Origin: Candidatus Bathyarchaeia archaeon
GTDB taxonomy: Archaea > Thermoproteota > Bathyarchaeia > Bathyarchaeales > Bathyarchaeaceae
NCBI GenBank assembly: GCA_041653695.1
Contig: JBAZEV010000001.1
Location: 9,737-73,736, forward strand
Direction: 5' to 3'
Length of the DNA stretch: 64,000 bases
Positions within the stretch are counted from its first letter, which is position 1. The number at the start of each line of letters is the position of its first letter. Of this stretch, positions 6,339 to 39,958 are shown piece after piece. Below the pieces are notes generated by a model, which saw only the letters and a list, made by a program, of their open reading frames with translations, was not told the DNA's origin and did not search any database. A program made the translations under genes and the position numbers.

Positions 6339-7010
6339 TTAGTCGTCCATTGTTTGTGTTGTCTTGGGGTATTTGTGCATAAACTGGTACAACAGTGTTG
6401 ACCCACTCGCAATTAGTATGATGCTTAATGCGAGGAGATAATACTGCAACGGGAAGTAAATGAAATATCCGACAAAAAACAGTGCCAACGTTAGTAGTGC
6501 GTAGCCGTACATCCGTTTTGCTCTAAACGCGTAGCCGCCAAACGTGAACAACCCGCATCCTATCAAGCCGATGGATATCATGTAGTTGTCAAATATTATG
6601 TTCATCCATGCGGGTATGCCTTGTTTAATCAGTATGAAACCAACTAAACCCAAAACAACAAAGCCGATAACGAATGCTCCTATGGCTAGTGCGAAGATTC
6701 TGTTTTGTTTCAGTTTGACGTATCCAATTCTGGGCACTGTTACTGTTTTTTTAAATGCCATATATCCAAATACTGCCATTGATGCCCAACCACCTGCTAG
6801 TGTTGGAATATCCAGTATTATCAACATGGCAAATGACATGATGAACGAGCCGATCACGATGTCGATTAAGCCATCCTCATGGTATGTTGTGTATGCTTTT
6901 CGTTCGATTTCTTTCAGGTTTATTCTGTCGTTCATTTGTTTCGCCTGAACTGAGAACATGGTTTGTACTATATAATACTTTGTATTGCAAAGTACTTTGT
7001 ATGAAAACAA
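6339..7010 (-). CDS. Polytopic membrane protein, co-operonic with the wHTH regulator
   Basis: At least five long hydrophobic segments. The true start is probably an internal Met (6959 or 6935), not 7010. Confidence 0.6.
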   Translation of the reverse strand: MFSYKVLCNTKYYIVQTMFSVQAKQMNDRINLKEIERKAYTTYHEDGLIDIVIGSFIMSFAMLIILDIPTLAGGWASMAVFGYMAFKKTVTVPRIGYVKLKQNRIFALAIGAFVIGFVVLGLVGFILIKQGIPAWMNIIFDNYMISIGLIGCGLFTFGGYAFRAKRMYGYALLTLALFFVGYFIYFPLQYYLLALSIILIASGSTLLYQFMHKYPKTTQTMDD

Positions 7011-7061
7011 AAAGAGGGCTAACTCCCAAAAAACGGGAAACCCCCAGAAAAACTGGAACAG

Positions 7062-7535
7062 TTACTCTATTGGCGCATAGATTTCGATTAACAAATCCTG
7101 CGGCGAAACCTCACGCGGGTCATTCAAGTAAATCTCACGCATCGGACCCGTAACAGTTTTGTTGTTCTCCTCCAGCCACTGCATCAACTTCTGGTAAGTT
7201 GCGGTCTCCGCTTCATACGGACCTTTATGCAATATCTTTGCCATTTTGCCCCCAGCTAACTCGTAACATTTGATTTCTTTTGTTTCCTTACCCCGTTGAG
7301 CTACTGGAACTACCACTTCAACATCTGCTGTGCCTTGGCTGTCTGCTTTTTGTGCCTCTTGTGGCGACATTTCGTGGCAGACAAACATTGGCGGTCCAAC
7401 TATTGGGATGTTGTTTTGTGCCGCAAACTGGCATATTTGGGGAATCATGGTGGCGATGCTTTTGTATGGTCCTTGTTTTCTCATGCCCAGAACCAGTTGT
7501 GGTTTAACGGTTACAATCGTTACTTCTTGTTTCAT
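7062..7535 (-). CDS. GyrI-like small-molecule-binding domain protein
   Basis: MKQEVTIVTVKPQLVLGMRKQGPYKSI...PMREIYLNDPREVSPQDLLIEIYAPIE matches the SbmC/GyrI-like (AraC effector-binding) pattern. Start moved to ATG 7535; the track ORF extends to 7622. Confidence 0.75.
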   Translation of the reverse strand: MKQEVTIVTVKPQLVLGMRKQGPYKSIATMIPQICQFAAQNNIPIVGPPMFVCHEMSPQEAQKADSQGTADVEVVVPVAQRGKETKEIKCYELAGGKMAKILHKGPYEAETATYQKLMQWLEENNKTVTGPMREIYLNDPREVSPQDLLIEIYAPIE

Positions 7536-7707
7536 TTTTTCACCAGTTTTTTGTTCTCTTTTTTGGTATTTAGTGTTTGAGCACAATTGTAACAACGGAA
7601 CGTGGAGAGGTAACTGAAACAATTCGCCTGCCGTTTGTGGGAAACATTTAGGTTAAATAGGGTGATTGTGTGAAAACCTACAGATATACACGTGATGTGA
7701 TGATAAT

Positions 7708-8577
7708 TTGGTTGAATTGATTGCTGAAGGCGACGACGTTTTTTTGTATCTGGACAGGAAACGAACTTACCTAATACGGGTTGAAGCCACAAAAAGTTTT
7801 CACACCCACAAGGGGTTCATCCAGTTAGGTGACCTAATCGGTAAAGAGTACGGAACCAAAATCGCCAGCAGCATGGGTATCGGATTCGTTGCAATGAAAC
7901 CAACTTTAGTTGATTACATCTTCAAAACAAATCGTCGTACACAGATTTCTTACCCCAAAGACATCTCGTTAATCATCATGAACAGCGGAATCGGTTCTGG
8001 AAGCCGCGTCGTTGAAGCCGGAACCGGAACAGGTGCACTGACAAGTGCTATTGCTCATTACGTTAAACCAACCGGAAAGGTTTACAGTTACGAGCTCAGG
8101 GAAGAGTTCCAAAAAAACGCCAAAAAGAACCTTGAACGCGCAAAACTGATAGACTACGTGGAACTCAAAGAAGGTGACATAACCCAAGGAATACAAGAAA
8201 CCGACCTAGATGCGATTATCTTGGATTTGGCTGCGCCTTGGCTTGTAATATCGCATGCGTATAACGCGTTGAAGGGAAGCGGGGTGCTGGTTTCGTTTAG
8301 TCCAACAATAGACCAAGTTGTAAAAGTTGTAGAAGCCCTAAACGATTACGGTTTCGTGGGCATCGAAACATCCGAAACATTGATTCGTTACATGCAAGTG
8401 GAACGCGGAAAAACTCGACCTCAAACAGTTATGACTGGTCACACTGGGTATCTGACGTTTGCACGTAAAGCAATTTTTGAACTAAAACCAGAACCCGAAC
8501 AGGAACCTGAACTAGAGCCTGAAACGGAACCTGAACCAGAAGAAACAGAGTTCGAGGAACTGCCCGTAACCGAGTAA
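7708..8577 (+). CDS. trmI: tRNA (adenine-N1)-methyltransferase TrmI/Gcd14 family, with an acidic (PE)n C-terminal tail
   Basis: N-terminal beta-domain (GDDVFLYLDRKRTYLIRV) plus SAM motif I VVEAGTGTGALT and YSYELREEF. The last ~35 aa are KPEPEQEPELEPETEPEPEETEFEE. Confidence 0.85.
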   Translation: MVELIAEGDDVFLYLDRKRTYLIRVEATKSFHTHKGFIQLGDLIGKEYGTKIASSMGIGFVAMKPTLVDYIFKTNRRTQISYPKDISLIIMNSGIGSGSRVVEAGTGTGALTSAIAHYVKPTGKVYSYELREEFQKNAKKNLERAKLIDYVELKEGDITQGIQETDLDAIILDLAAPWLVISHAYNALKGSGVLVSFSPTIDQVVKVVEALNDYGFVGIETSETLIRYMQVERGKTRPQTVMTGHTGYLTFARKAIFELKPEPEQEPELEPETEPEPEETEFEELPVTE

Positions 8578-8581
8578 ACGG

Positions 8582-8956
8582 TTACTGGATTCGCCTTTTC
8601 AGGTAAACAAACACCGCCAACGCAACACCAAGACTGGGCAGGGTCATCCATGCCAGCGGCGAGAAATCTGTTGGCTCTTCAGTGTTGCCTACGGTTAATA
8701 CGCCTGGCGGACTTGGGTATTCTGTTTCATTTGAGGTTGCCTTAGGGTCTTGTAGTGTTCCGTCGTTGCGTGTAATATTATTTTGTGAATTTTCTTGGTC
8801 TGTGGCACTAAGGTTGTAGCTGCCCTCTGGGTTTGTTTGGTAATTACCCACCAGAGTCAAAGGAACCAGTAGGGTAACAGTCCCAAGCAGGATGGCAACC
8901 GTAACGTATGCTAGCATTTTGTTCAAACTTATTCTTCCACCTTTACCCTGAAACAT
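8582..8956 (-). CDS. Small bitopic or secreted protein (N-terminal TM/signal, C-terminal TM plus KRR anchor)
   Basis: MLAYVTVAILLGTVTLLVPL.. at the N-terminus, a polar N/T/S/E-rich middle, and ..MTLPSLGVALAVFVYLKRRIQ at the C-terminus. Lies directly downstream of the HTH-membrane gene. Confidence 0.45.
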   Translation of the reverse strand: MFQGKGGRISLNKMLAYVTVAILLGTVTLLVPLTLVGNYQTNPEGSYNLSATDQENSQNNITRNDGTLQDPKATSNETEYPSPPGVLTVGNTEEPTDFSPLAWMTLPSLGVALAVFVYLKRRIQ

Positions 8957-16809: not shown

Positions 16810-17466
16810 TTATGCGCTTGCGGCTGGTGTTGATGTTATCGCGCCTTCAAGGATGCTTAACATCTTCTCCATTCCAGCGGGCATTTCGTCCTGAACCGCT
16901 TTTACGTGTATAGCTAAGGAGTATGTTCTGTTAACCGTGTTGCCTTGTTGGGTTGTTCGCTGAAAAGAAGTTGAGACCTTCAGTTTGGCTGACCCGAATA
17001 ACCATCCGGCTTTTGCTTCTACTGACGCGTCTACTTTGAGGTTTGTGTCTGTTTTTCGGTATGATACTGAATTGATTTTTGCGTTGAAATCCACTGTGGT
17101 TTCTTCAATTCGAATGAACGGAATCGGCAAAAGCGTAAGTATTGGAACTTGAAGCTGCTGAGTTTCATAAACTGCAGGCACTGCTGCGGTTGCTGGAATT
17201 GGTGGTGTTGCAGATGGGTCTCCGGTTGTTGCGGGTTGATATGGGCTGAGTTCTTTTGGGTACTTGAATGTAACATAGATTGGTTCTTCAGTTGCGGTGT
17301 CGTCTCCGGCGTTTGCTTCAGTTTTTGGTTTTTTAAATCCCACTTCTTTGATGAAGTTCACGGTTGACATTGCGGCTTGTGCTTGTGCGTTAATTACTGC
17401 TACCAGTGGACCGCCTATCATAGATTCAAAATCTATGCTTGATAATTCTTGACCAGGGTTTGGCAT
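16810..17466 (-). CDS. Hypothetical protein, paralogue A of the MPNxG...PIPxFR pair (DUF2589-like?)
   Basis: ATG preceded by GGTGA. MPNPGQELSSIDFESMIGGPLVAVINAQAQAAMSTVNFIKEVGF, then a P/T/A-rich linker, then LLPIPFIRIEETTVDFNAKI and a beta-rich C-terminal half. Confidence 0.65.
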   Translation of the reverse strand: MPNPGQELSSIDFESMIGGPLVAVINAQAQAAMSTVNFIKEVGFKKPKTEANAGDDTATEEPIYVTFKYPKELSPYQPATTGDPSATPPIPATAAVPAVYETQQLQVPILTLLPIPFIRIEETTVDFNAKINSVSYRKTDTNLKVDASVEAKAGWLFGSAKLKVSTSFQRTTQQGNTVNRTYSLAIHVKAVQDEMPAGMEKMLSILEGAITSTPAASA

Positions 17467-17713: not shown

Positions 17714-17736
17714 TTAGTCAAGGTTTATTGACAAAA
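17714..17736 (+). promoter_or_regulatory. Copy of the palindromic TTAGTCAAG-N5-TTGACAAAA operator, followed by an A/T-rich TATA-like stretch
   Basis: TTAGTCAAGGTTTATTGACAAAA is nearly identical to 28104-26. Only a 12-codon ORF (ATG 17780) follows it at the same spacing. Confidence 0.45.
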
Positions 17737-18012: not shown

Positions 18013-19071
18013 TTACTTATTTTTTCTCTTTTTGATGATTGCAGTTACTGCCACTCCGATGATTGCTATGGTTGTCAGCAATAGCACGATTTGTGTGGGT
18101 TGTAATGATTGTGGTGTTGTGTCTTCGTTTTCGGGAATCGTGTCTGTTCCTTCAGAGCCTCCAACTGCAAGTGTGTTGCATTTGAATACTTCGCCGGAAT
18201 CTGCCCAAACTCCAACTGAAAGAGCCCAAACGTTCCCTTTTGATTCGGCTAACGTTAATTGTACATTCCAGTATGGATACAATGCTTCGTCGCCTTTTGT
18301 TGACGTTTTTAGTTCTACAGTTGTTTTTTCTTCATCTACGTTAAATCCGCTGATTTGAACGTATTCTGGGTTATCAATTGAACCAGTAACACTAGTGTAT
18401 GAGTAGTCTTTGATGTACTCCATTGCCGCGTTGATTGCTTGTTCTGCTGAAATGTTTACATCAGTTTTTCCAATGGTGAATAATCCTCGGTTATCTCGCA
18501 TGGCATAAAAATATCCATTTCTGAATGTTATTCCTAACTTGGTATACTCTGCGTCATCTATCGTGTTCGTCCAACTAAATGATGTGTCAAACTGGTTTGT
18601 TGATACTTCCAGTTTGATGTTTCCTTGTGTTATTGTCATGTTTTGCGTTTCATCAATTTGTGTTAATAATTTTATCATTTCTAACAAGCTTTCATTGTTG
18701 TATCTTTGGTATTTTTCAAGAAAATCTTGTGCGGCGTCTGCAAACTTATTGAATGTTCTAGTGCAAATAGGTGTTCCTGTTTGTATGTTTACTATGCAGC
18801 CTGTCAAAACGTTGCCTGTAAATACGCATGTTGGTGCTATTACGCTTTCGTCAGCGGTACAGTTGTATTGTATAGTCGTAATATTTGATTCAACGAAGTG
18901 TTTTGAGATGCTTATTTCATATTTAGAACTGTCAAATGGCAAAACGTTCTCTATGAACGCTAATGTTCTGTTTTGTGCTTCAACTGCTTCTGAGGATACT
19001 AAAGCTAACTGTCCAGTGAGTATGAAACTAGTTATGATGCAAATGGCAAAAATGTTTTTTTTGTTTTTCAT
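18013..19071 (-). CDS. Cell-surface protein (signal peptide, C-terminal TM plus KKRKNK anchor)
   Basis: MKNKKNIFAICIITSFILTGQLALVSS.. is the signal. Many N-x-T/S sequons. The C-terminus is ..PTQIVLLLTTIAIIGVAVTAIIKKRKNK. Confidence 0.65.
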   Translation of the reverse strand: MKNKKNIFAICIITSFILTGQLALVSSEAVEAQNRTLAFIENVLPFDSSKYEISISKHFVESNITTIQYNCTADESVIAPTCVFTGNVLTGCIVNIQTGTPICTRTFNKFADAAQDFLEKYQRYNNESLLEMIKLLTQIDETQNMTITQGNIKLEVSTNQFDTSFSWTNTIDDAEYTKLGITFRNGYFYAMRDNRGLFTIGKTDVNISAEQAINAAMEYIKDYSYTSVTGSIDNPEYVQISGFNVDEEKTTVELKTSTKGDEALYPYWNVQLTLAESKGNVWALSVGVWADSGEVFKCNTLAVGGSEGTDTIPENEDTTPQSLQPTQIVLLLTTIAIIGVAVTAIIKKRKNK

Positions 19072-20142: not shown

Positions 20143-20221
20143 GGGTCCGTGGTCTAGTCTGGATTAGGACACTGGCCTGCGAAGCCGGAGTTCCGGGGTT
20201 CGAATCCCCGCGGACCCGCCA
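20143..20221 (+). tRNA. tRNA-Arg (anticodon GCG) with genomically encoded CCA
   Basis: Cloverleaf folded by hand: acceptor GGGTCCG/CGGACCC, D-stem GTCT/GGAC, anticodon stem CTGGC/GCCGG with loop CTGCGAA, V-loop AGTTC, T-arm CGGGG-TTCGAAT-CCCCG, discriminator G, then CCA. Confidence 0.93.
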
Positions 20222-20242: not shown

Positions 20243-22189
20243 ATGGTTTCCAGTTCCCCCTTTGCCGAGTTCTATGCAGCATGCGAATCTGTTCTAAAGG
20301 ATGCACTAACACGGTTATACCCAGACTACAGTTTACCATCGATATTGCTTGAGGTACCTCCAAATCTTGACTTTGGCGAGTTGGCGTCTTCGGTATGTTT
20401 TGAGCTTGCCAAACACGCCAAGAAAAGTCCTCGAGTTATTGCGCAGCAAATCGTGGATGATATCGACGTTTTATGTGCCCCCTTGATTGAGGGTGTTTCG
20501 GCTGCTGGGGCTGGGTATGTTAATTTCCGGGTTGACTCTGCAAGGTTTTCTTGTTTGACGTTGGAGTCTGCCCAAGTTTTAGATTCCGAGTATGGTTACG
20601 TCAAAACTGATGCACCAAAAAACATGCTTGTGGAACATACCAGCGTTAATCCTGTGCACCCGATTCACATCGGGCAGGCAAGAAACCCCATGCTGGGCGA
20701 CGCGGTTTCGCGGATTTTGGCTAAACGTGGGCATAAAGTTTCGCGACACTACTACGTTGATGATGTTGGGCGCCAAAGCGCGGTTATCGCGTATGGTTAC
20801 ACCAAACTGGGCAAACCTGCGCCTGAGGGTAAGCCTGACCGTTTCATCGGCGGTATCTACACGGTTACTAGTTGTATCATGGAGGTTAAACGGCTTCAAA
20901 AAGCGGTTGACGCTTCAAGTTGTCTTGGTGAGCAGGAACGCCAAAAACTGGCGAAATCGTTGGATGAGTGGACCAACATTTCCAGTGAGATACAGCAACG
21001 TTTTCCTGAACTTTTCGAACAACTATCAACAGAAATCGGCAAAGACTCCGACCCCGAAGCACAGGTCAGCAAACTGATACAAGGCTACGAGGCAGGTGAA
21101 CCAGAACCCAAACAGTTGCTGCGTGAGGTCTGTAACCTGTGTTTGAGTGGGTTCAGGGAAACTCTTGGCAGTGTTGGCGTTTGCTTGGATTCTTGGGATT
21201 GGGAAAGCGACCTAATCTGGAACGGCGACGTAGGCAACGTTATCAAGCAGCTGAAGGCAACGCCGTATGTTTTCAAGGAAAACGATGTACTGGAGTTTGA
21301 CGCAGAAAAAGTAGCCCACGACCTAGACCTGAAAAAGAAGCTTGGAATCAGCGACGACCACGAACTTACGCCGTTAACGTTGATGCGCGGCGACGGAACA
21401 TCGTTGTATACAACGCGGGATATTGCATATCATCTGTGGAAGTTCACGCAAGCCGACTACGTGGTTAACGTCATCGGTATGGAGCAGACGCTTCCGCAGT
21501 TGCAACTGAAACTGGCGTTAAGCGCGCTTGGGCACGTAGATTACATCACAAGGCTTACCCATTTTGCTTATAGTCTGGTCAGGCTTCCAGGTTACCGTAT
21601 GTCCAGCCGCAGAGGACGATACATCACATTAGACGAAGTATTAGCAGGTGCAGCAGAACGCGCCTACGCCGAGGTTTCGAAGCGTTCTCCGATGCTGTCC
21701 GAGGAAGAGAAACGTGAAATCTCCGTTTTTGTGGGAAAAGGTGCAGTAAAATTTGCGTTGATTGCCGTTGACCCAACAAAACCCGTGGTTTTTACTTGGG
21801 ACCGTGTTCTGGATTTTGAGAAGAACAGTGCACCGTATATCCAGTATTCGCATGCTAGGGCTTGCAGTATTTTGCGTAAAGCAGAGAAAACGCCGCAGAA
21901 CGTTGACTACTCGTTGTTGGTTGATGTTATGGAACGGGATTTGATACTTTGTTTAGCCCGTTTTCCGGACGTTTTTGTTGACGCTGCAGAAAACCTGAAA
22001 CCAAGCGCTGTGGCAGATTACCTGAACCTGTTAGGTGACAAATTTAACAGGTTCTACACCAAGTTGCCTGTTCTTAAAGCTGAGTCCCCCCAGCTTTGTG
22101 ATGCGCGTTTGGCGCTTGTGGTTGCTACGCGGATTGTTTTGCGTAATGGTTTGCGGCTTTTGGGTATCGAGGCACCTGATCGGATGTAG
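20243..22189 (+). CDS. argS: Arginine--tRNA ligase
   Basis: 648 aa. Class I HIGH region HTSVNPVHPIHIGQARN. The ArgRS N-terminal Add-1 and C-terminal DALR anticodon-binding layout is present (..SAPYIQYSHARACSILRKA..). Confidence 0.95.
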   Translation: MVSSSPFAEFYAACESVLKDALTRLYPDYSLPSILLEVPPNLDFGELASSVCFELAKHAKKSPRVIAQQIVDDIDVLCAPLIEGVSAAGAGYVNFRVDSARFSCLTLESAQVLDSEYGYVKTDAPKNMLVEHTSVNPVHPIHIGQARNPMLGDAVSRILAKRGHKVSRHYYVDDVGRQSAVIAYGYTKLGKPAPEGKPDRFIGGIYTVTSCIMEVKRLQKAVDASSCLGEQERQKLAKSLDEWTNISSEIQQRFPELFEQLSTEIGKDSDPEAQVSKLIQGYEAGEPEPKQLLREVCNLCLSGFRETLGSVGVCLDSWDWESDLIWNGDVGNVIKQLKATPYVFKENDVLEFDAEKVAHDLDLKKKLGISDDHELTPLTLMRGDGTSLYTTRDIAYHLWKFTQADYVVNVIGMEQTLPQLQLKLALSALGHVDYITRLTHFAYSLVRLPGYRMSSRRGRYITLDEVLAGAAERAYAEVSKRSPMLSEEEKREISVFVGKGAVKFALIAVDPTKPVVFTWDRVLDFEKNSAPYIQYSHARACSILRKAEKTPQNVDYSLLVDVMERDLILCLARFPDVFVDAAENLKPSAVADYLNLLGDKFNRFYTKLPVLKAESPQLCDARLALVVATRIVLRNGLRLLGIEAPDRM

Positions 22190-27657: not shown

Positions 27658-27888
27658 TTACTCTGTGACCTTTTTTGCCCATTCTTCTTGAAGTTTCTGG
27701 GCAAGGTTTCCGTTTTCTAAAATGAATGCTCCGTGGTAACCGCAGTTTCTGCACTCCCACAGCGACCAAAGTTGCGGTAATCCCTGCGCCCAGTTGATGT
27801 CGGTTGACCCGCATTGTGGGCAAAACTTGTGTGAATACACCTTGTTTGTTTGAGCTTTTTTTGCTGTTTCTTTATCTGCCATTGGCAT
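27658..27888 (-). CDS. Small zinc-ribbon protein
   Basis: 76 aa with CPQCGS..(21 aa)..CRNCGY, a four-Cys ribbon. Confidence 0.55.
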   Translation of the reverse strand: MPMADKETAKKAQTNKVYSHKFCPQCGSTDINWAQGLPQLWSLWECRNCGYHGAFILENGNLAQKLQEEWAKKVTE

Positions 27889-28058: not shown

Positions 28059-28126
28059 TTAGTCAGAGTTTCTTGACTAACACATTTCCCAAACACCCTA
28101 TTCTTAGTCAAGGTTTCTTGACAAAA
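28059..28126 (+). promoter_or_regulatory. Tandem palindromic operator sites upstream of the NosD-like surface gene
   Basis: Site 1 TTAGTCAGAGTTTCTTGACTAA (28059-80) and site 2 TTAGTCAAGGTTTCTTGACAAAA (28104-26), followed by the TATA-like TTTTTTTAA (28131-39) and ATG 28173. Confidence 0.55.
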
Positions 28127-28172
28127 ACCCTTTTTTTAACGTTGTAACTCAAACCCTGTTGCTGGTACACTT

Positions 28173-29696
28173 ATGGAACTCAAAAAGGCAGCATTGTTTA
28201 CTGTGCTTGTTAGTGTTCTTGTGTTTTGCTTATGTTCCCAGTTTGTTAGTTTAGCTTGGGCAAATTTTTTGCCTGTTCCCACACCGCAACCTAATTACAC
28301 CATAAAATCTGACGGAACAATTGAACCATCAACTGCGCCTATCAAGCGGAGTGGAAGTGTCTATACTCTTACAGGTGACGTTTTCAACACAACAATAGCG
28401 ATAGAAAAAGACAACAGCATCCTTGACGGGGGCGGTTTCACCCTTTACGGGACTGGGCAATCGTCTACTGGCGTTTTCATCTATAATCATCGGGGCATAA
28501 CAGTTAGAAACATGAACATCAAGAACCACGGTTACGGCATTCGTATAGGCACTGACGTTTTTCATGATTATCCAGATGGCAGCCACGTTGTTTCTGGGAA
28601 CAACCTGACAGAAAACAAGTACGGAATCTACATTGTTTATTCATGCAATAACGTGTTAACAAACAACAAGCTAAACAACAACAATTACGCTCTGTATGTT
28701 GCGGACAGCCCGCTTAACCAATCCATTTCACATTTTGTTAACGATATTGGGGTATCAAACACCGTTAACGGCAAACCTGTGTGTTATTGGGTTAACCAGC
28801 ACGACCGTTCTGTTCCATCTGACGCGGGGTATGTCTGTTTATTGTACTGCAGCAACATTTTGGCTCAAAACTTGGACCTTACTGGGAAAAGTGAAGAAAT
28901 AATCCTATATGCCACTTATTGGTCGCAGATAACTGGCTGTAACATAACAAACAATGATGGCAACGGCATCTCCTTGTCGAAGTCCTGTAACAACAGCGTG
29001 TCATTAAACACCATAGCAAACAACGGAAAATATGGAATCTACATCGATAATTCCGAAAACAACGACATTTTTGAAAACACAATAACATCCAACTTCAAAG
29101 GAATCGAAGCATACAACAGTGGCTCAAACAACCGCTTCGTTAAGAACACAATAACCCAAAACACCGAATACGGCATCAGCTTCAACTGGAGCCAAAACCA
29201 AAACTATATTTCTGAAAACTACATCGCACAAAACGGCAAAGGCATGATTCTAAAAGAATCCTCCAGCAACACAATCGTGGGAAACACCATAAAAGAAAAC
29301 AATGGTTGGGCACTGCAAATTGAAGGCGGCGCAGACAACATCATTTACCATAACCACTTTGTAAACAACAACGTAACTGATGGTCTGCAGGTGTCTATAC
29401 CTGGTTTATGGGAACCTGGCGTTTGGCAAGCTGGAAACCCCAACGTTTGGGATGACGGCGAAAAAGGCAACTACTGGAGCGACTACTTTACAAGGTACCC
29501 TAACGCCTCAGAAATCGGGGACACATCAATAGGCGATACACCGTTTTACATCAACCCAAACAACATCGACCATTACCCCGTAACTGAATACGATGCAATC
29601 CCAGAGTTTCCAATGTTGAGTATCTTACCCGTTTTGTTATCTTCTGCGTTGTTGGTGCTGTTTTTCAAAAAACGAGTAACACGTTACCATCAATAA
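28173..29696 (+). CDS. NosD-like right-handed beta-helix surface protein with a PEF-CTERM-type sorting signal
   Basis: Signal peptide. Many ~22-aa PbH1-type repeats (..N.I..N...GI.....N.). GNYWSDY..GDTPFYI..D.YP. C-terminus IPEFPMLSILPVLLSSALLVLFFKKR. Confidence 0.8.
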   Translation: MELKKAALFTVLVSVLVFCLCSQFVSLAWANFLPVPTPQPNYTIKSDGTIEPSTAPIKRSGSVYTLTGDVFNTTIAIEKDNSILDGGGFTLYGTGQSSTGVFIYNHRGITVRNMNIKNHGYGIRIGTDVFHDYPDGSHVVSGNNLTENKYGIYIVYSCNNVLTNNKLNNNNYALYVADSPLNQSISHFVNDIGVSNTVNGKPVCYWVNQHDRSVPSDAGYVCLLYCSNILAQNLDLTGKSEEIILYATYWSQITGCNITNNDGNGISLSKSCNNSVSLNTIANNGKYGIYIDNSENNDIFENTITSNFKGIEAYNSGSNNRFVKNTITQNTEYGISFNWSQNQNYISENYIAQNGKGMILKESSSNTIVGNTIKENNGWALQIEGGADNIIYHNHFVNNNVTDGLQVSIPGLWEPGVWQAGNPNVWDDGEKGNYWSDYFTRYPNASEIGDTSIGDTPFYINPNNIDHYPVTEYDAIPEFPMLSILPVLLSSALLVLFFKKRVTRYHQ

Positions 29697-29776: not shown

Positions 29777-30427
29777 ATGTTGGCACAAAAGTTAGGAGAA
29801 ATTCAAAAACCTGCGGTTGACAGTTTTGTTTTGGCAAAAAAACTGTTTTGTTTACCTTTGATACCCCGATTCGAAAGCGAAACCATCCAAAAAGTGCTGC
29901 AACAAAGCATAGACCTGTTTTGGCAACAAGCCGATAAACAAGTCAGCGAACTTGAACGCACAGGAAAGGTTTCTTACATATTCTACGAGTCTGTAACCGC
30001 GGACGGCGACGTTGGACTGGATGTCATTAAACAGATTAACGACCAAAGCTACAACCTTGTCAAAGAAAAACTTGGTCAAGGCGCAAAACTTGTATCAATC
30101 GAAGAGGAAGAAACATTCAACGAGTACCTTGACTGGTCTATCTGTTTGTCGGTTGTCAGGAAAAGCTACAGTGTACTTAACAAGATTCTTGGGTTTCATC
30201 AGGAAATCTCCAAGAAACGTGTCGAGAATATCGCCAAAAAGATACAAGACACCCTGCAAAGCGGCGAAACTGGACTGCTTGTAATGACGGATGAGAACAG
30301 GTTGCAGGTTCAGTCGCTTTTGTCTGATGATATTCAGGTGTTTTTGGTTCGTCCACCCGCATTGAATGATATTGAACACTTTTTCAGGGACTACATGAAG
30401 CAACAAAATGAGGCAGAATGTTCGTAG
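29777..30427 (+). CDS. Hypothetical cytoplasmic protein
   Basis: 216-aa ORF with no TM segment, signal peptide or recognised motif. Confidence 0.5.
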   Translation: MLAQKLGEIQKPAVDSFVLAKKLFCLPLIPRFESETIQKVLQQSIDLFWQQADKQVSELERTGKVSYIFYESVTADGDVGLDVIKQINDQSYNLVKEKLGQGAKLVSIEEEETFNEYLDWSICLSVVRKSYSVLNKILGFHQEISKKRVENIAKKIQDTLQSGETGLLVMTDENRLQVQSLLSDDIQVFLVRPPALNDIEHFFRDYMKQQNEAECS

Positions 30428-30534: not shown

Positions 30535-31350
30535 TTGCTTGTAACCTTAACCCTTTCATTACTCTTCACCACAGTTCAAATCGGCAACACCGCCCAAGCA
30601 ACCACTGACCCAATACCCCTCCAAGGCGTAGAAATACAAGAATACCAAGGAAAAGACCTTTCTTCAATCAACGACTTCTACGAAAACTCAATCAACGGAC
30701 CCCAATACATCGACACCGCAACCTACAACCTTACAGTTTTTGGGCTTGTACAAAACAACCTCACATTGACCTATAACCAGATTCTGGGCAGTTTTCAAGC
30801 ATACAAAAAAGTTGTAACCCTGTACTGCGTAGAAGGATGGGACGTCACAATACTCTGGGAAGGCATATTACTCAAAGACATTCTTGCACAAACACCAATT
30901 TCTCCACAAGCAAACACGCTAATATTTTATGCCCAAGACGGCTACACAACCGCGCTACCGTTAGATTACATCGTGGACAACAACATAATGATAGCCTACA
31001 AAATGAACAACGTAACCCTGCCCGCAGAACGCGGTTACCCCTTCGAGTTAGTCGCCGAAAGCCAAGCAGGCTACAAGTGGATACGGTGGATAACCCAAAT
31101 CGAAGTATCCTCCAACCAAGACTACCTTGGATACTGGGAAAGCCGCGGCTGGACCAACAACGCATACGTGAGCGGTCCAATCACACCAGACCAAAATGGC
31201 GTTTTTCTGTTACGACCCGCACCCCAACCAGGCAGCGGCGCACCTGAAATACCTGAATTTGCATCGTGGACTATTATCCCAATTATTGCAACCTCTACCG
31301 TGGTTTTGTTGCAGTTCAGAAAGAAACTAAACAAAAAAGCTACACGTTAA
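30535..31350 (+). CDS. Molybdopterin-oxidoreductase-fold (sulfite oxidase/MsrP-like) exported protein with a PEF-CTERM-type signal
   Basis: LYCVEGWDVTILWEGILLKDIL, GYTTALPLDY, ERGYPFELVAESQAGYKWIRWITQIEV. C-terminus IPEFASWTIIPIIATSTVVLLQFRKKLNKK. The start is uncertain: TTG 30535, while the in-frame upstream ..ITNKKTVLTHI looks like a missing n-region. Confidence 0.7.
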   Translation: MLVTLTLSLLFTTVQIGNTAQATTDPIPLQGVEIQEYQGKDLSSINDFYENSINGPQYIDTATYNLTVFGLVQNNLTLTYNQILGSFQAYKKVVTLYCVEGWDVTILWEGILLKDILAQTPISPQANTLIFYAQDGYTTALPLDYIVDNNIMIAYKMNNVTLPAERGYPFELVAESQAGYKWIRWITQIEVSSNQDYLGYWESRGWTNNAYVSGPITPDQNGVFLLRPAPQPGSGAPEIPEFASWTIIPIIATSTVVLLQFRKKLNKKATR

Positions 31351-36625: not shown

Positions 36626-36804
36626 ATATCACACGGGTACCTGAAACCATAAAAGCCTTATGCACCCCAAATCGTGTTCGCGGCACAGTTCTGCGCAACT
36701 AGAAAATCGTTCATTTCGTTTTGTTGCATGACTACATTTTTCACCATTTTTCGAATAAATCTGACACACAAAACGCATAATAGGAAACAATGTAACAATA
36801 GTAC

Positions 36805-38505
36805 ATGGTGGGGGGGAACAAATACAAGATGAAATTGTTTATTCATGTGTTCTTGTCACTTTTTTTAGTTTTATTGGTATTATCCAGTTTTTGGGGTACT
36901 TTTGATGGATTTGTTTTTGCAGAGTCCCCGCCGCTTGTTGTGGTAATTGGTTCGGATACTGTTTGGACTACTGCGGTCAGTCCATACATTCTTACTGGTC
37001 CTTTGCTTGTAAGTGAAGGCGCTACTTTAACAATCGGAGCAGGTGTTACAGTGGACTTTAATGGTTACCACATGCGTGTGGATGGTGTCCTAATTGCAAA
37101 AGGTAGTAATGCTCAAAAAATCCATTTTACTAACGGAGAAAAAATCGATTTCACATCCACCAGTGTTGGCTGGAATGAACAGACCAATTCAGGCAACCTG
37201 ATTGAATACTCTGTTATCGATTTTCCAGTCAACTGCACTGGTGTAGCAATTAAGGTAACAAACAGCGTCATCAACGGCGAACTTACTGTAGGAGATTTTT
37301 CCAGAATTTCGGATAACACAATTTTGGGTAGAACTTTTCTTTCTACAACTGGCTTGCCTTACGCACTTTACGCGACGAGTTCATGTGTGGTTACAAACAA
37401 CGTCATTAACGGAACACAAGCTACTGGACAAGCTTTCGCAGCAGTCTACACTTATTGTTATGCGGTTACTGTTTGGAACTTGTCTGTAATCTCAGGTAAC
37501 AACATTACTGGAAGTGTAGTTGCCAAAGGGTCTTCTGAAGTTTTGAACAACAATATTGTGGGAGATGTTCAATGTTGGTCTGCAACAGTTTCAGGTAACA
37601 ACATTACTGGCAAAATTAAGGGGGTTTCATGTACAGTTTCAAACAACGCTATTTCTGGTGGACAACCCACATATGATTGGGGTGGACGATCTGATGACCC
37701 ATCGTCTGCGGTTAGTATCAGCGGGTATTCATCTGTAGTTGAGAATAATTTCATATCAAGTCCGCTTGGTGGCTACGGAATACTGATTCAGGAGGGGGAT
37801 ACTGCTGTTTCGGGTAACGTAATCTTTGATTGTATAACTGGAATCAGAGCAGCAGGAGACGCAACAATAGCGGGCAACCTAATTAAAAACAATGGTTTGG
37901 GAATAGCAATAGGAAACATCGCTTTTTCTGGTTTTAACGACCACAACTATGGTTCAGGTGACGTAATAATCCGTGACAACACAATCACAAATAACGGTAA
38001 TGGAATCAGCGGTGGTAACGGCGGTTCAGCAACTATAGAACGCAATTCGATAACAAACTGTACACAAGGTATCTATGTTTTGTTGCCTGTAATTATCCAA
38101 AACAACACTATATCTGGCACTCAGGTGGCAGTTGTGGTGGGTTACTGCTCATCTATTACTTTAATCTACAATAATATCGAAAACTACACCCAAAACAGCA
38201 TCTGGTTGAAAACCTCAAACAACTTAAATGCATCCTATAACTGGTGGGGAACAACCGACACGCAAACGATTAATCAATCAATATTTGACTTCAAAAACGA
38301 CTTTAACTTGGGCACAGTAAACTTCACTTCTTTTCTAGACGAACCAAACCCGGAAGCAGAACTAGTTTCACAGCCCACGATTCCAGAGTTTTCATCATGG
38401 ATCATTTTGCCCTTATTGATGGTATTAGTCTTAATCGCAGTTGTTTCCCGCAAGAAACTGATGCACAACGTTGGTCCTTTTTTGTCTGTTTTCCGTTTTT
38501 CTTGA
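36805..38505 (+). CDS. Right-handed beta-helix surface protein with a PEF-CTERM-type signal
   Basis: Signal peptide (start ATG 36805 or 36829). Long runs of N-N-I/V-I-x-G repeats. The C-terminal region is PTIPEFSSWIILPLLMVLVLIAVVSRKKL plus a 15-aa tail. Confidence 0.8.
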   Translation: MVGGNKYKMKLFIHVFLSLFLVLLVLSSFWGTFDGFVFAESPPLVVVIGSDTVWTTAVSPYILTGPLLVSEGATLTIGAGVTVDFNGYHMRVDGVLIAKGSNAQKIHFTNGEKIDFTSTSVGWNEQTNSGNLIEYSVIDFPVNCTGVAIKVTNSVINGELTVGDFSRISDNTILGRTFLSTTGLPYALYATSSCVVTNNVINGTQATGQAFAAVYTYCYAVTVWNLSVISGNNITGSVVAKGSSEVLNNNIVGDVQCWSATVSGNNITGKIKGVSCTVSNNAISGGQPTYDWGGRSDDPSSAVSISGYSSVVENNFISSPLGGYGILIQEGDTAVSGNVIFDCITGIRAAGDATIAGNLIKNNGLGIAIGNIAFSGFNDHNYGSGDVIIRDNTITNNGNGISGGNGGSATIERNSITNCTQGIYVLLPVIIQNNTISGTQVAVVVGYCSSITLIYNNIENYTQNSIWLKTSNNLNASYNWWGTTDTQTINQSIFDFKNDFNLGTVNFTSFLDEPNPEAELVSQPTIPEFSSWIILPLLMVLVLIAVVSRKKLMHNVGPFLSVFRFS

Positions 38506-38611: not shown

Positions 38612-38857
38612 ATGGTCTATGGTTATATCCTCGTTACATTGAAGTCAGGCGCTGAAAGAGACGTCTGCGAAAAAGTTGCAAACTTCGAAGAAGTAGTCCA
38701 AGTAGACGAACTCTACGGAGAATACGACGCCATCGCAAAAGTACAAGTAAAAGACCTAGCCGACCTAGACAAATTCCTAACCGACAAACTCCGCAACCTG
38801 TCAGACATATTTTTGACAACAACCATGATTGTTGCAAAAGAATACAAAAGCGAGTAA
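38612..38857 (+). CDS. Stand-alone Lrp/AsnC-type ligand-binding (RAM) domain protein
   Basis: 81 aa. MVYGYILVTLKSGAERDVCEKVANFEEVVQVDELYGEYDAIAKVQV fits the AsnC_trans_reg beta-alpha-beta-beta-alpha-beta pattern. No HTH. Confidence 0.65.
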   Translation: MVYGYILVTLKSGAERDVCEKVANFEEVVQVDELYGEYDAIAKVQVKDLADLDKFLTDKLRNLSDIFLTTTMIVAKEYKSE

Positions 38858-38950: not shown

Positions 38951-39007
38951 TTAGTCAAGAAAACTTGACTGTGTTCACTTTTTTTAGTCAATAAATGTTA
39001 ACAAAAA
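38951..39007 (+). promoter_or_regulatory. Tandem operator sites of the same family upstream of the disrupted beta-helix gene
   Basis: TTAGTCAAGAAAACTTGACT (38951-70) and TTAGTCAATAAATGTTAACAAAA (38984-39006). Confidence 0.5.
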
Positions 39008-39211
39008 ACCTTTTACATTGCATTAACAAAGTATTATTGGTGCAGTATGTGACATATTTTCGATTTTGTTGTGTCATTTTTTTATTTATTTGCATTTTCT
39101 TTATGCCTGTTTTTATTTCTGATTTTGTTGGTGCTGAAATAGGCTCCGTTTAATCATGTATGCATTAACGATGATGGAACTACTGAACCCTCGGATGCAC
39201 CTATCCGTCAT

Positions 39212-39958
39212 GTGGGCAATGTCTATACTCTGTTAAGCGATTTAGACGCTGTAATTGTTTTGAAAAATGATATCATACTTGATGGAAACGGGCACTCCGT
39301 GACTGGGCGAGGAAGAACAATGGCAATCTATGTTAGCGCAACAAACGTAACAGTAATGAATTTTGTTCTTTTTGGCTGCCAAGTGGGAATCTGGTTGAAT
39401 ATGTCTGCAAATGCAATCGTAGTTAACAACACAATAACAGACATAACAGCCGCTATTCCACAGGTTCAGACAACTGGTGCAATTTACATCTGGGGCGGCG
39501 GCTCCCATGTCATAACAGGAAATCAGATAGAGAATAGCTACGGCGGAATCGGTTTCGGTTTCACTTCAAGTAGTTGTCTGGTAGTTGGAAACAACATAAC
39601 TGGAAACACTTATGGCGTTGGACTTTGGAGCTCGTCAAATAACGTTTTCCACCATAACAACTTCATCAACAACACATTGAACGTGAATGACTGGAGTTCC
39701 ACATCCACAAACATCTGGGACAACGGCAAAGAAGGCAACTACTGGAGCGGCTACAACCAAACAAACAACAACACACATGGAATATGGGACACACCATACA
39801 CTATTGATAACAACAACCAAGACAACTACCCACTTATGTCTCCTGTGCGCGATTATGTCCTCCCAGAGTTTCAGTCATGGCTGATTTTGCCCGTTCTGGC
39901 GGCTGCAACAGCATTAACCATTTTTTATAAAAAGAAACTACCCAAAAAACCAAACTAG
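39212..39958 (+). CDS. NosD-like beta-helix surface protein with a PEF-CTERM-type signal; N-terminus disrupted (signal peptide in another frame)
   Basis: Track ORF starts at GTG. GNYWSGY..WDTPYTIDNNNQDNYPL and the C-terminus LPEFQSWLILPVLAAATALTIFYKKKLPKK. Homology to the 28173 protein continues upstream to 39143 (..INDDGTTEPSDAPIRHVGNVYTL). The signal-peptide-like ORF (about 39040-39153) is in the +1-shifted frame. Confidence 0.65.
   Translation: MGNVYTLLSDLDAVIVLKNDIILDGNGHSVTGRGRTMAIYVSATNVTVMNFVLFGCQVGIWLNMSANAIVVNNTITDITAAIPQVQTTGAIYIWGGGSHVITGNQIENSYGGIGFGFTSSSCLVVGNNITGNTYGVGLWSSSNNVFHHNNFINNTLNVNDWSSTSTNIWDNGKEGNYWSGYNQTNNNTHGIWDTPYTIDNNNQDNYPLMSPVRDYVLPEFQSWLILPVLAAATALTIFYKKKLPKKPN

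Follow-up and report, generated by a model that had tools for sequence, protein, structure and literature searches.

The DNA analysed here is a 64,000-nt stretch of the genome of a Candidatus Bathyarchaeia archaeon (hereafter, the window), in which a 22-bp inverted repeat, TTAGTCAAG-N4-CTTGAC(A/T)AA, occurs five times, with starts at positions 17714, 28059, 28104, 38951, and 38984. All five copies are intergenic. Four of them form two tandem pairs upstream of genes for NosD-like proteins, and the fifth stands apart. The sites (with their scores under the position weight matrix, PWM, described below), the promoter element resembling a TFB recognition element and TATA box (BRE/TATA), and the putative target genes are the following:

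28059..28080: site A, putative distal operator of the 28173 promoter, TTAGTCAGAGTTTCTTGACTAA, 26.3 bits, 45 nt upstream of site B.
28104..28125: site B, putative promoter-proximal operator, TTAGTCAAGGTTTCTTGACAAA, 33.1 bits, the window maximum.
28122..28140, + strand: BRE/TATA-like element of presumed promoter function, ACAAAAACCCTTTTTTTAAC, overlapping the outer 3-4 nt of site B.
28173..29696, + strand: putative target gene, NosD/right-handed beta-helix protein of 507 aa with a signal peptide and a PEF-CTERM anchor.
38951..38972: site C, putative distal operator, TTAGTCAAGAAAACTTGACTGT, 23.9 bits, 33 nt upstream of site D.
38984..39005: site D, putative promoter-proximal operator, TTAGTCAATAAATGTTAACAAA, 20.9 bits, the lowest of the five, then AAAACCTTTTACATT.
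39040..39958, + strand: putative target gene, frameshifted NosD-like PEF-CTERM paralogue.
17714..17735: site E, orphan copy, TTAGTCAAGGTTTATTGACAAA, 29.3 bits.

The initial annotation of this DNA had described five inverted-repeat copies in intergenic spacers, two pairs of them in tandem at offsets of 45 nt (28059 to 28104) and 33 nt (38951 to 38984), and these were all recovered; the same is true of the distances that it gave from the start of the proximal site to the start codon, i.e., 69 nt (site B to 28173) and 56 nt (site D to the GTG at 39040, when this is taken as the second start). With up to two mismatches allowed, the pattern TTAGTCA-N8-TGACWAA matched exactly these five loci in the window, three of them with no mismatch, including site A, which matches on both strands; in Markov-1 shuffles searched in the same way, the mean number of loci was 1.15 and the maximum 4. 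The PWM was symmetrised and trained on 14 sites, five from the window and nine from other genomes, so that the test is partly circular for the window and not circular for other loci. According to this matrix, the five sites score 20.9-33.1 bits and the runner-up among about 64,000 positions 8.4, and shuffled windows yielded 0.027 positions of at least 17 bits per 64 kb.

The protein encoded at 28173-29696 matches the Pfam families NosD (3.5e-31) and Beta_helix (1.2e-28), ends in ...IPEFPMLSILPVLLSSALLVLFFKKR, and is identical to an NCBI entry, a NosD-domain protein of "Candidatus Bathyarchaeia archaeon". The DNA at 39040-39958 is homologous to this gene (repeat family D15), and it is split: a signal-peptide open reading frame (ORF) runs from the GTG at 39040 to the TAA at 39153, and the body follows in the next frame, after a TAG at 39140. 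The body ORF (39212-39958) retains a Pfam NosD match (7.2e-16) and the C-terminus LPEFQSWLILPVL...KKK. This arrangement points to an apparent +1 frameshift near 39143-39150, which would represent either a pseudogene or an assembly error. The BRE/TATA flank at site B resembles other promoter-like AAAnnnTTTA(W) elements of the window (repeat family D14).

A PEF-CTERM signature (a P-E-F motif, a hydrophobic helix, and a basic cluster), called by a regular expression and not by the TIGRFAM model, was found in the products of 28173-29696, 39212-39958, 36805-38505, and 30535-31350. The last two, a beta-helix protein of 566 aa and a protein with a molybdopterin-oxidoreductase domain, respectively, are encoded by genes without the operator, which implies that the operator marks only part of the archaeosortase substrates. 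Moreover, the 30535 gene has a TATA-like element of its own, a feature bearing on the cotranscription of 29777-30427 and 30535-31350 with 28173. A sixth, weak half-site had been proposed at 36751..36776 (+ strand), ahead of the third beta-helix gene; it was rejected, the best PWM score across 36700-36804 being -1.0, and that gene is not shown to be a member of the set.

Homologues of the NosD gene offer a view of the element beyond the window. Six loci were picked by protein similarity alone, with the motif ignored; in five of them, at 41-50% protein identity, the NosD gene or operon is immediately preceded by arrays of the element:

L002, Ca. Bathyarchaeum sp. CP070820.1: three sites, 45 nt apart.
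L003, GCA_026014495.1: two sites.
L004, Logan ERR15087788: two arrays.
L206, Ca. B. tardum: two sites, 44 nt apart.
L208, GCA_049366835.1: two sites, 34 nt apart.
L207, JGI 3300048689: no site.

The 22-mer of site B recurs identically as the proximal site in L206 and in a further locus (L054). A tandem-pattern scan of 185,579 species genomes added at least 11 Bathyarchaeia loci with the same layout, and 402 kb of loci that had been fetched through a transcription factor (TF) gene discussed below, and not through the motif, contained 47 sites of at least 17 bits, compared to about 0.17 expected from the shuffle rate. The element is thus conserved across the sampled Bathyarchaeia, at promoters of surface-protein genes. 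The regulon, which the initial annotation had called local, is in fact found across these organisms, and the proposal of a palindromic TF operator common to promoters of surface or exported proteins gains from its conservation in many other Bathyarchaeia.

The matches listed in the tandem-pattern scan are dominated by an apparently unrelated bacterial element, pairs of TGTCAAG-N4-CTTGACA in Xanthomonadales and Actinomycetota. Such pairs, about 50 nt apart (or triplets at about 25 nt), were seen in Xanthomonadales/Lysobacterales, Actinomycetota, Acidobacteriota, and Firmicutes; among L005-L124, examples are L008 5679-5738, L027 2545-2606, L044 2919-2980, and L080 2889-2948. They adjoin genes for small membrane proteins and, in L027, also an XRE-type helix-turn-helix (HTH) gene. 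The bacterial palindrome shares the core of the archaeal operator, the hosts are unrelated, and it is probably a separate bacterial operator family.

The geometry of the promoters is conserved together with the site. In nearly all homologous promoters, the proximal site is directly followed by AAAA-NN-CTTTT(A/T/C), a BRE/TATA-like flank, and the start codon lies, in the other loci, 30-62 nt after the proximal site and BRE/TATA. Across 58 non-redundant promoters the information content is high only at positions 0-30, the flank portion of this profile being partly imposed by the selection filter. The observation that the proximal site abuts a TATA-like run therefore extends beyond the window, since the junction is kept upstream of NosD-like, Kelch, and Ig-like genes elsewhere. 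Furthermore, the downstream genes are mutually non-homologous (NosD beta-helices, Kelch proteins, Ig-like proteins, a family of 204-302 aa, and a 63-aa membrane protein), and nearly all of them encode a signal peptide plus a C-terminal anchor or PEF-CTERM.

The gene for the small membrane protein (63-64 aa, MNKYALTLPL...) is the first gene in several of the motif-controlled operons, and a hairpin, TGTTGG-N5-CCAAC, ends exactly at its ATG (L002 9124-9147; L003 about 7336-7360; L004 8716-8739; L105, minus strand, about 5150). This hairpin may act in translation initiation or in control at the RNA level.

One could imagine that the sites are leftovers of duplication, i.e., promoters copied along with NosD paralogues, or else a dispersed repeat or miniature inverted-repeat transposable element (MITE). 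Two of the three window loci do precede paralogous genes; however, the upstream regions of the window sites can be aligned only over about 31 nt, the motif plus about 10 nt of flank (repeat family D6), beyond which the flanks are unrelated, and no larger unit, termini, or duplicated flanks are visible. The motif is kept across proteins of 41-50% identity while the remaining intergenic DNA diverges, it precedes non-homologous Kelch, Ig-like, small membrane protein, and TF genes, and its positions are fixed relative to the BRE/TATA. The occurrence at non-homologous genes, together with the conserved geometry, is the pattern of an operator and not that of a MITE, a duplicated promoter, or chance, and we give the duplication scenario practically no weight. 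A random distribution and a MITE, the two outcomes that had been named beforehand as speaking against an operator, were looked for and not seen in the sampled loci.

The composition of the sites is equally informative. The consensus is tTaGTCAAG-(R W W Y)-CTTGAC(a/t)aa, 22 bp long, with the core GT-AA-N6-TT-AC; in 58 unique sites, G4, T5, A7, A8, T15, T16, and A18 are invariant, and positions 11-12 at the centre hold only A or T. The half-sites of GTCAAG-N4-CTTGAC are related by a dyad, their centres being separated by 10 bp, and the invariant positions mirror one another. Departures from the consensus within the arms comprise 71 one-sided changes that break complementarity and 17 Watson-Crick double changes, most of the latter being A/T swaps at position 3/20. 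The 9-bp arms could in principle pair, as expected of a hairpin at the RNA or single-strand level (for instance, that of a terminator, CRISPR-like repeat, or processing site), but arm changes are overwhelmingly non-compensatory and the sites lie upstream of the TATA, outside the controlled transcript; these two features favour DNA-protein recognition over an RNA hairpin. A terminator lacks its T-run context here, and repeats this degenerate, with "spacers" of 12-23 nt and no more than three copies, do not resemble a CRISPR array.

An origin recognition box belongs to the same group of explanations and would find its one argument in L002, where an orc1/cdc6 gene is located at 0.5 kb from the array. 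Against it, the window has three separate loci in its 64 kb, and neither the approximately 30 ORFs scanned (15.5-46 kb of the window) nor the called genes of L003, L004, L206, and L208 include a cdc6. Hairpin and origin box alike can be considered negligible. In L002 itself (6993-8840, Ca. Bathyarchaeum sp. CP070820.1), the orc1/cdc6 gene 0.5 kb from the three-site array overlaps an 88-aa ArsR-type HTH_5 gene, and an 82-aa gene lies between orc1/cdc6 and the array; the outermost site has a second BRE/TATA-like flank, facing the orc1/cdc6 side, so the array may serve divergent promoters.

Arrays hold two or three sites, and the distances between them fall into discrete classes: among 25 dereplicated adjacent pairs, 18 are at 43-46 nt, 6 at 33-35 nt, and 1 at 67 nt, classes that differ by about 11 bp or twice that. 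This spacing bears on another scenario, in which the element, as an upstream promoter element, would make up a specialised type of extended core promoter, recognised by an alternative TFB/TBP paralogue that serves surface-protein genes. Such a scenario would account for the fusion of the proximal copy to the BRE/TATA in nearly all promoters, but not for the distal copies, which lie 34-45 nt upstream and have no TATA. Elements recognised by general transcription factors are asymmetric; the one described here is a palindrome with two-fold symmetry, and both orientations are used at the divergent promoters of L002, L022, and L045. We therefore regard an extended core promoter as very improbable.

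According to these data, the 22-bp element is best read as the operator of a transcription factor, taken jointly with the candidate regulator described below, and we assign this reading a probability of roughly 0.7.

Of the approximately 30 window ORFs searched with Pfam (15.5-46 kb), none has an HTH domain, and the candidate emerges from other Bathyarchaeia. In L079 (Ca. Bathyarchaeum tardum), a 25.5-bit site with its BRE/TATA lies 39 nt before the gene of a 360-aa protein matching the Pfam families HTH_20 (1.9e-9), HTH_5 (ArsR; 1.3e-8), and DUF7347 (8.7e-10), and in L022 a frameshifted homologue of this protein is divergent from the array. The ArsR/DUF7347 family has at least 367 members. 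In 30 homologues of 35-76% identity, the recognition-helix segment is invariant (I46-D47-S48-G49-H50, S52-Y53-H54, E56, and L58-G59). The sequence of the N-terminal domain matches PDB 1y0u (E 5.9e-4), and in Foldseek the winged helix-turn-helix (wHTH) superposes on HlyU, SmtB, and CzrA at TM-scores of 0.7-0.79; Pfam, the PDB match, and Foldseek thus concur on an ArsR-type wHTH fold. The AlphaFold model (pLDDT 78.5) places the wHTH at residues 1-87, a helix at 100-125, a beta-sandwich at 128-324, and a second helix at 328-357. The two helices are long and hydrophobic in the model, flank the beta domain, and are putative transmembrane (TM) helices.

The genes of this family are themselves associated with the operator. 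We fetched 80 metagenomic loci with a homologue alignment, 73 of which were evaluable; 23 of the 73 have a site of at least 17 bits located 65-115 nt before the TF start, amounting to 11 distinct sequences, with L079 as the 12th. In 9 further loci, strong tandem arrays directly follow the TF gene, where they occupy the promoter of a PEF-CTERM gene (Kelch, NosD, or other). When the threshold is lowered, most of 15 re-examined homologue loci show a proximal variant of the TTGGTAAAAGTTTCTTCAC type fused to AAAAAnCTTTTTCAA at -67 to -76, a variant seen also at some distant paralogues; closer orthologues carry in addition a distal variant at about -95 to -104, 25-35 nt further upstream. The distant paralogues of L158, L161, and L164 score below 8 bits, with a similar element recognisable by eye. 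The variant sites (GTAAAr/yTTCAC) have A or G, not C, at half-site position 6, and hybrid GTCAAG/GTAAAG sites occur in the promoters of both the TF and its targets, which suggests a single recognition system of graded affinity.

Five of the PEF-CTERM genes that follow a TF gene (L136 5179, L138 5176, L151 5712, L155 3160, and L157 5128) have in common the N-terminus VVPMVGD(R/K)RATLILLLILC and the DNA ...TAGTGGTGCC around a GTG start, and their mature domains differ (Kelch, NosD, or other). The common beginning looks like a signal-peptide cassette or a translation-start context.

The family is a well-supported candidate, and the statement that the TF is not identifiable can be dropped. On the strength of these comparisons, we lean somewhat towards the ArsR/DUF7347 protein as the cognate regulator of the operator, i.e., a membrane-tethered, autoregulated, one-component regulator of ArsR type. 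It could be objected that the operator is real and is bound by another soluble TF encoded elsewhere, the ArsR/DUF7347 protein being a target or a binder of the GTAAAG variant. This would agree with the variant half-site of most TF promoters, with an ectodomain resembling those of other regulon members, and with the lack of a family gene in the window. On the other hand, it would leave the hybrid half-sites shared by TF and target promoters and the family-wide invariance of the recognition helix without explanation; TF genes adjoin strong GTCAAG arrays in several distinct lineages, and no second DNA-binding gene recurs near the arrays in the loci examined. A separate soluble factor thus appears unlikely, though it deserves consideration.

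Two genes next to the window arrays had been put forward as possible regulators:

38612..38857, + strand: stand-alone RAM gene (Lrp/AsnC ligand-binding domain), Pfam AsnC_trans_reg 8.1e-17, no HTH.
27658..27888, - strand: divergent zinc-ribbon gene, 76 aa, with only sub-threshold Pfam zinc-ribbon matches.

For the latter, tblastn found no homologue beside the sites in any other locus, and its proposed role as the TF is not borne out. The former bears on the possibility that the sites are boxes of an Lrp/AsnC protein (feast/famine regulatory protein, FFRP), with the promoter wrapped as by Ss-LrpB and modulated by the adjoining RAM protein. The RAM-only gene is directly upstream of the 38951 array, a RAM gene 52% identical to it lies about 1 kb from the array of L030, and Ss-LrpB typically has multiple, regularly spaced boxes whose centre is rich in A/T (PMC1802622). 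The RAM protein itself, however, has no HTH or other DNA-binding domain, so it can hardly be the TF; no full-length Lrp was found in the window, where tblastn with the RAM domain returned only the self-match. Among about 95 Bathyarchaeia loci, a convincing RAM homologue near an array is limited to L030, L159 giving one weak match (28%, E 6e-8). Moreover, the 6+4+6 core with its R-W-W-Y centre differs from the 13-bp abcde-[AAT/ATT]-edcba sites given for archaeal FFRPs in PMC2715240; the Ss-LrpB box measures 15 bp, and the FFRP palindrome is not found in our sites. An Lrp/AsnC system is, in our opinion, quite improbable. In both L030 (4477-4716, - strand) and the window (38612-38857), RAM genes occur within about 1 kb of arrays, in arrangements that differ; the cases are too few for a RAM-array link, yet the association recurs in two genomes. 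Otherwise, the surroundings of the window sites consist of common housekeeping genes (ArgRS, H+-PPase, FBPase, and ribosomal proteins).

The BRE/TATA-like flank of site E, ACAAAACGCTTTTCAAC, extends to about 17750 and faces the + strand, on which no ORF longer than 31 aa occurs downstream of the site before 18013. Site E lies past the 3' end of the exported-protein gene 18013-19071 (- strand) and 248 nt upstream of a cytoplasmic-looking DUF2589 gene, 16810-17466 (- strand). Hence, the claim that the copies always stand next to exported-protein genes holds for the other sites and only loosely for this one, where the neighbour is reached at its 3' end and no exported gene lies downstream. Transcription from site E would reach the 3' end of 18013-19071 in antisense; the site may be the promoter of a small RNA, an antisense promoter, or a relic. 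Rfam over the window gave nothing at site E, its only match being a tRNA at 20143-20218, whose gene precedes that of arginyl-tRNA synthetase (20243-22189) by 25 nt.

Several points weigh against the reading of the element as the operator of the ArsR/DUF7347 protein, and they concern both halves of it. As for the operator, its support comes from sequence comparison; site E has no recognisable target gene; two of the four PEF-CTERM genes of the window (36805 and 30535) lack it, so that the regulon would be a subset only; one NosD-homologue locus, L207, has no site; and the taxonomic range is drawn from the matches listed in the tandem-pattern scan (at least 11 Bathyarchaeia loci). As for the regulator, tblastn found no candidate gene in the window, the gene being seen in other Bathyarchaeia loci; genes for ArsR-type wHTH proteins are very common in archaea; and the promoters of the TF itself mostly carry the variant half-site, with A or G at position 6. 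A different, possibly paralogous, factor could bind the GTCAAG class, and the TF, as a probable membrane protein with an ectodomain, could be simply another member of the regulon.

If the operator and the candidate do belong together, the following mechanism can be depicted. Each 22-mer would be bound by a homodimer of the winged-helix TF, to which the 10-bp distance between half-site centres is suited, and neighbouring dimers would interact, the fixed rotational relation between sites suggesting cooperative binding. Spacings of 34, 45, and 67 nt would amount to 3, 4, and 6 helical turns if one turn takes about 11.2 bp; at 10.5 bp per turn, they would instead keep the rotational offset constant. 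A factor tethered to the membrane would naturally be constrained to sites on the same face of the DNA. As the BRE starts at the end of the core of the proximal site, the bound factor would touch TFB/TBP and control the initiation of leaderless or short-leader genes. These would encode secreted, membrane-anchored, or PEF-CTERM surface proteins, Kelch and PQQ-like propellers included, and the members in the window would be 28173-29696 and the frameshifted paralogue 39040-39958. The regulator, encoded outside the window, would be a protein of about 360 aa in which the N-terminal wHTH is followed by a beta-sandwich ectodomain set between two TM helices; it would sense the outside as a one-component sensor and regulate its own gene through the weaker variant sites GTAAAr/yTTCAC.

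Concerning the sign of the regulation, the position of the proximal site would be compatible with either recruitment of TFB or occlusion of the BRE. Characterised archaeal sites just upstream of the BRE usually activate, as in the cases of the two ArnR boxes of flaB (see below), Ptr2, and TFB-RF1, and many TATA boxes in these promoters are T-runs without the A-rich part. These two aspects together favour activation, which we consider fairly probable, and the "activator-type position" of the initial annotation seems reasonable.

Bathyarchaeia are among the most abundant archaea in sediments, and to our knowledge almost nothing is known about their gene regulation. The literature searched contained no mention of DUF7347, and the search for Bathyarchaeia and surface proteins gave nothing on regulation. 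The operator and its candidate regulator would offer a directly testable entry point into this field. The target class, PEF-CTERM-anchored beta-helix and propeller proteins, probably builds or decorates the cell surface, the PWM could be used to annotate regulons in hundreds of metagenome-assembled genomes, and the phased arrays represent a model for a membrane-bound factor engaging DNA beside TFB/TBP. If the reading is true, this would be the first cis-regulatory code and the first TF-operator pair defined for this abundant uncultured phylum. Outside conditions would be coupled directly to the transcription of the PEF-CTERM/archaeosortase-dependent surface proteome and of the sensors' own genes. 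As a whole, the picture of a family of ArsR-type tethered sensors, with an invariant recognition helix and divergent ectodomains, that acts on phased arrays of a BRE-fused operator and couples the outside to the surface proteome is put forward here tentatively, the odds being slightly against it in its full extent.

Among known systems, the one closest in its way of working is ArnR/ArnR1 of Sulfolobus acidocaldarius, a membrane-bound one-component regulator with an N-terminal HTH acting on the flaB promoter (PMC6396743). The ArnR boxes of flaB are two inverted repeats located at -43 to -84, upstream of the BRE/TATA, and both are required for binding (PMC6396743). The likeness to our candidate lies in the HTH protein, putatively membrane-bound in our case, the paired boxes upstream of the BRE, and the cell-surface targets. 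The box, however, is TCGAC-N5-GTCGA (15 bp) in ArnR and GTCAAG-N4-CTTGAC within a 22-mer here; ArnR has a HAMP-like and a sensor domain followed by two C-terminal TM segments, while the candidate has the predicted arrangement wHTH-TM-ectodomain-TM and no Pfam HAMP; and the targets are of the type-IV-pili class in the former, PEF-CTERM or secreted proteins in the latter, the phylum also being different. By architecture and box, the resemblance of the candidate to ArnR is at most one of function, and it does not belong to that family. If confirmed, it would be the second case, independently evolved, of membrane-bound transcription control of archaeal surface structures.

Ss-LrpB of Sulfolobus solfataricus binds in a cooperative manner to three 15-bp boxes set at regular distances, wrapping about 100 bp of DNA (PMC1802622). 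It resembles the present system in having several spaced palindromic boxes with an A/T-rich centre upstream of the promoter, and differs from it in the box, TTGCAAAATTTGCAA, of 15 bp, and in belonging to the Lrp family, no full-length Lrp being linked to the arrays here.

With ArsR/SmtB proteins such as SmtB, CzrA, and HlyU, the candidate shares the winged-helix fold. The classical members of the family are homodimers that bind imperfect inverted repeats, and the operator type of SmtB and CzrA, 12-2-12, is unrelated in sequence to the one described here. These proteins are soluble metal or redox sensors of about 100 aa, whereas the candidate has 360 aa, two putative TM helices, and a predicted ectodomain, and these extra regions suggest a mode of sensing unlike that of the metal-sensing ArsR/SmtB proteins. 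Finally, ToxR and CadC are bacterial membrane-tethered wHTH proteins, the wHTH being N-terminal and cytoplasmic, with an external sensor domain and repeated sites upstream of the target promoters; unlike the candidate, they have an OmpR-type domain, a single TM helix, and direct-repeat sites, and they act on the bacterial transcription machinery. Taken together, the operator and its targets plausibly represent a new TF-operator regulon of a known general kind, for which an unusual membrane-anchored regulator of ArsR type is a plausible partner.

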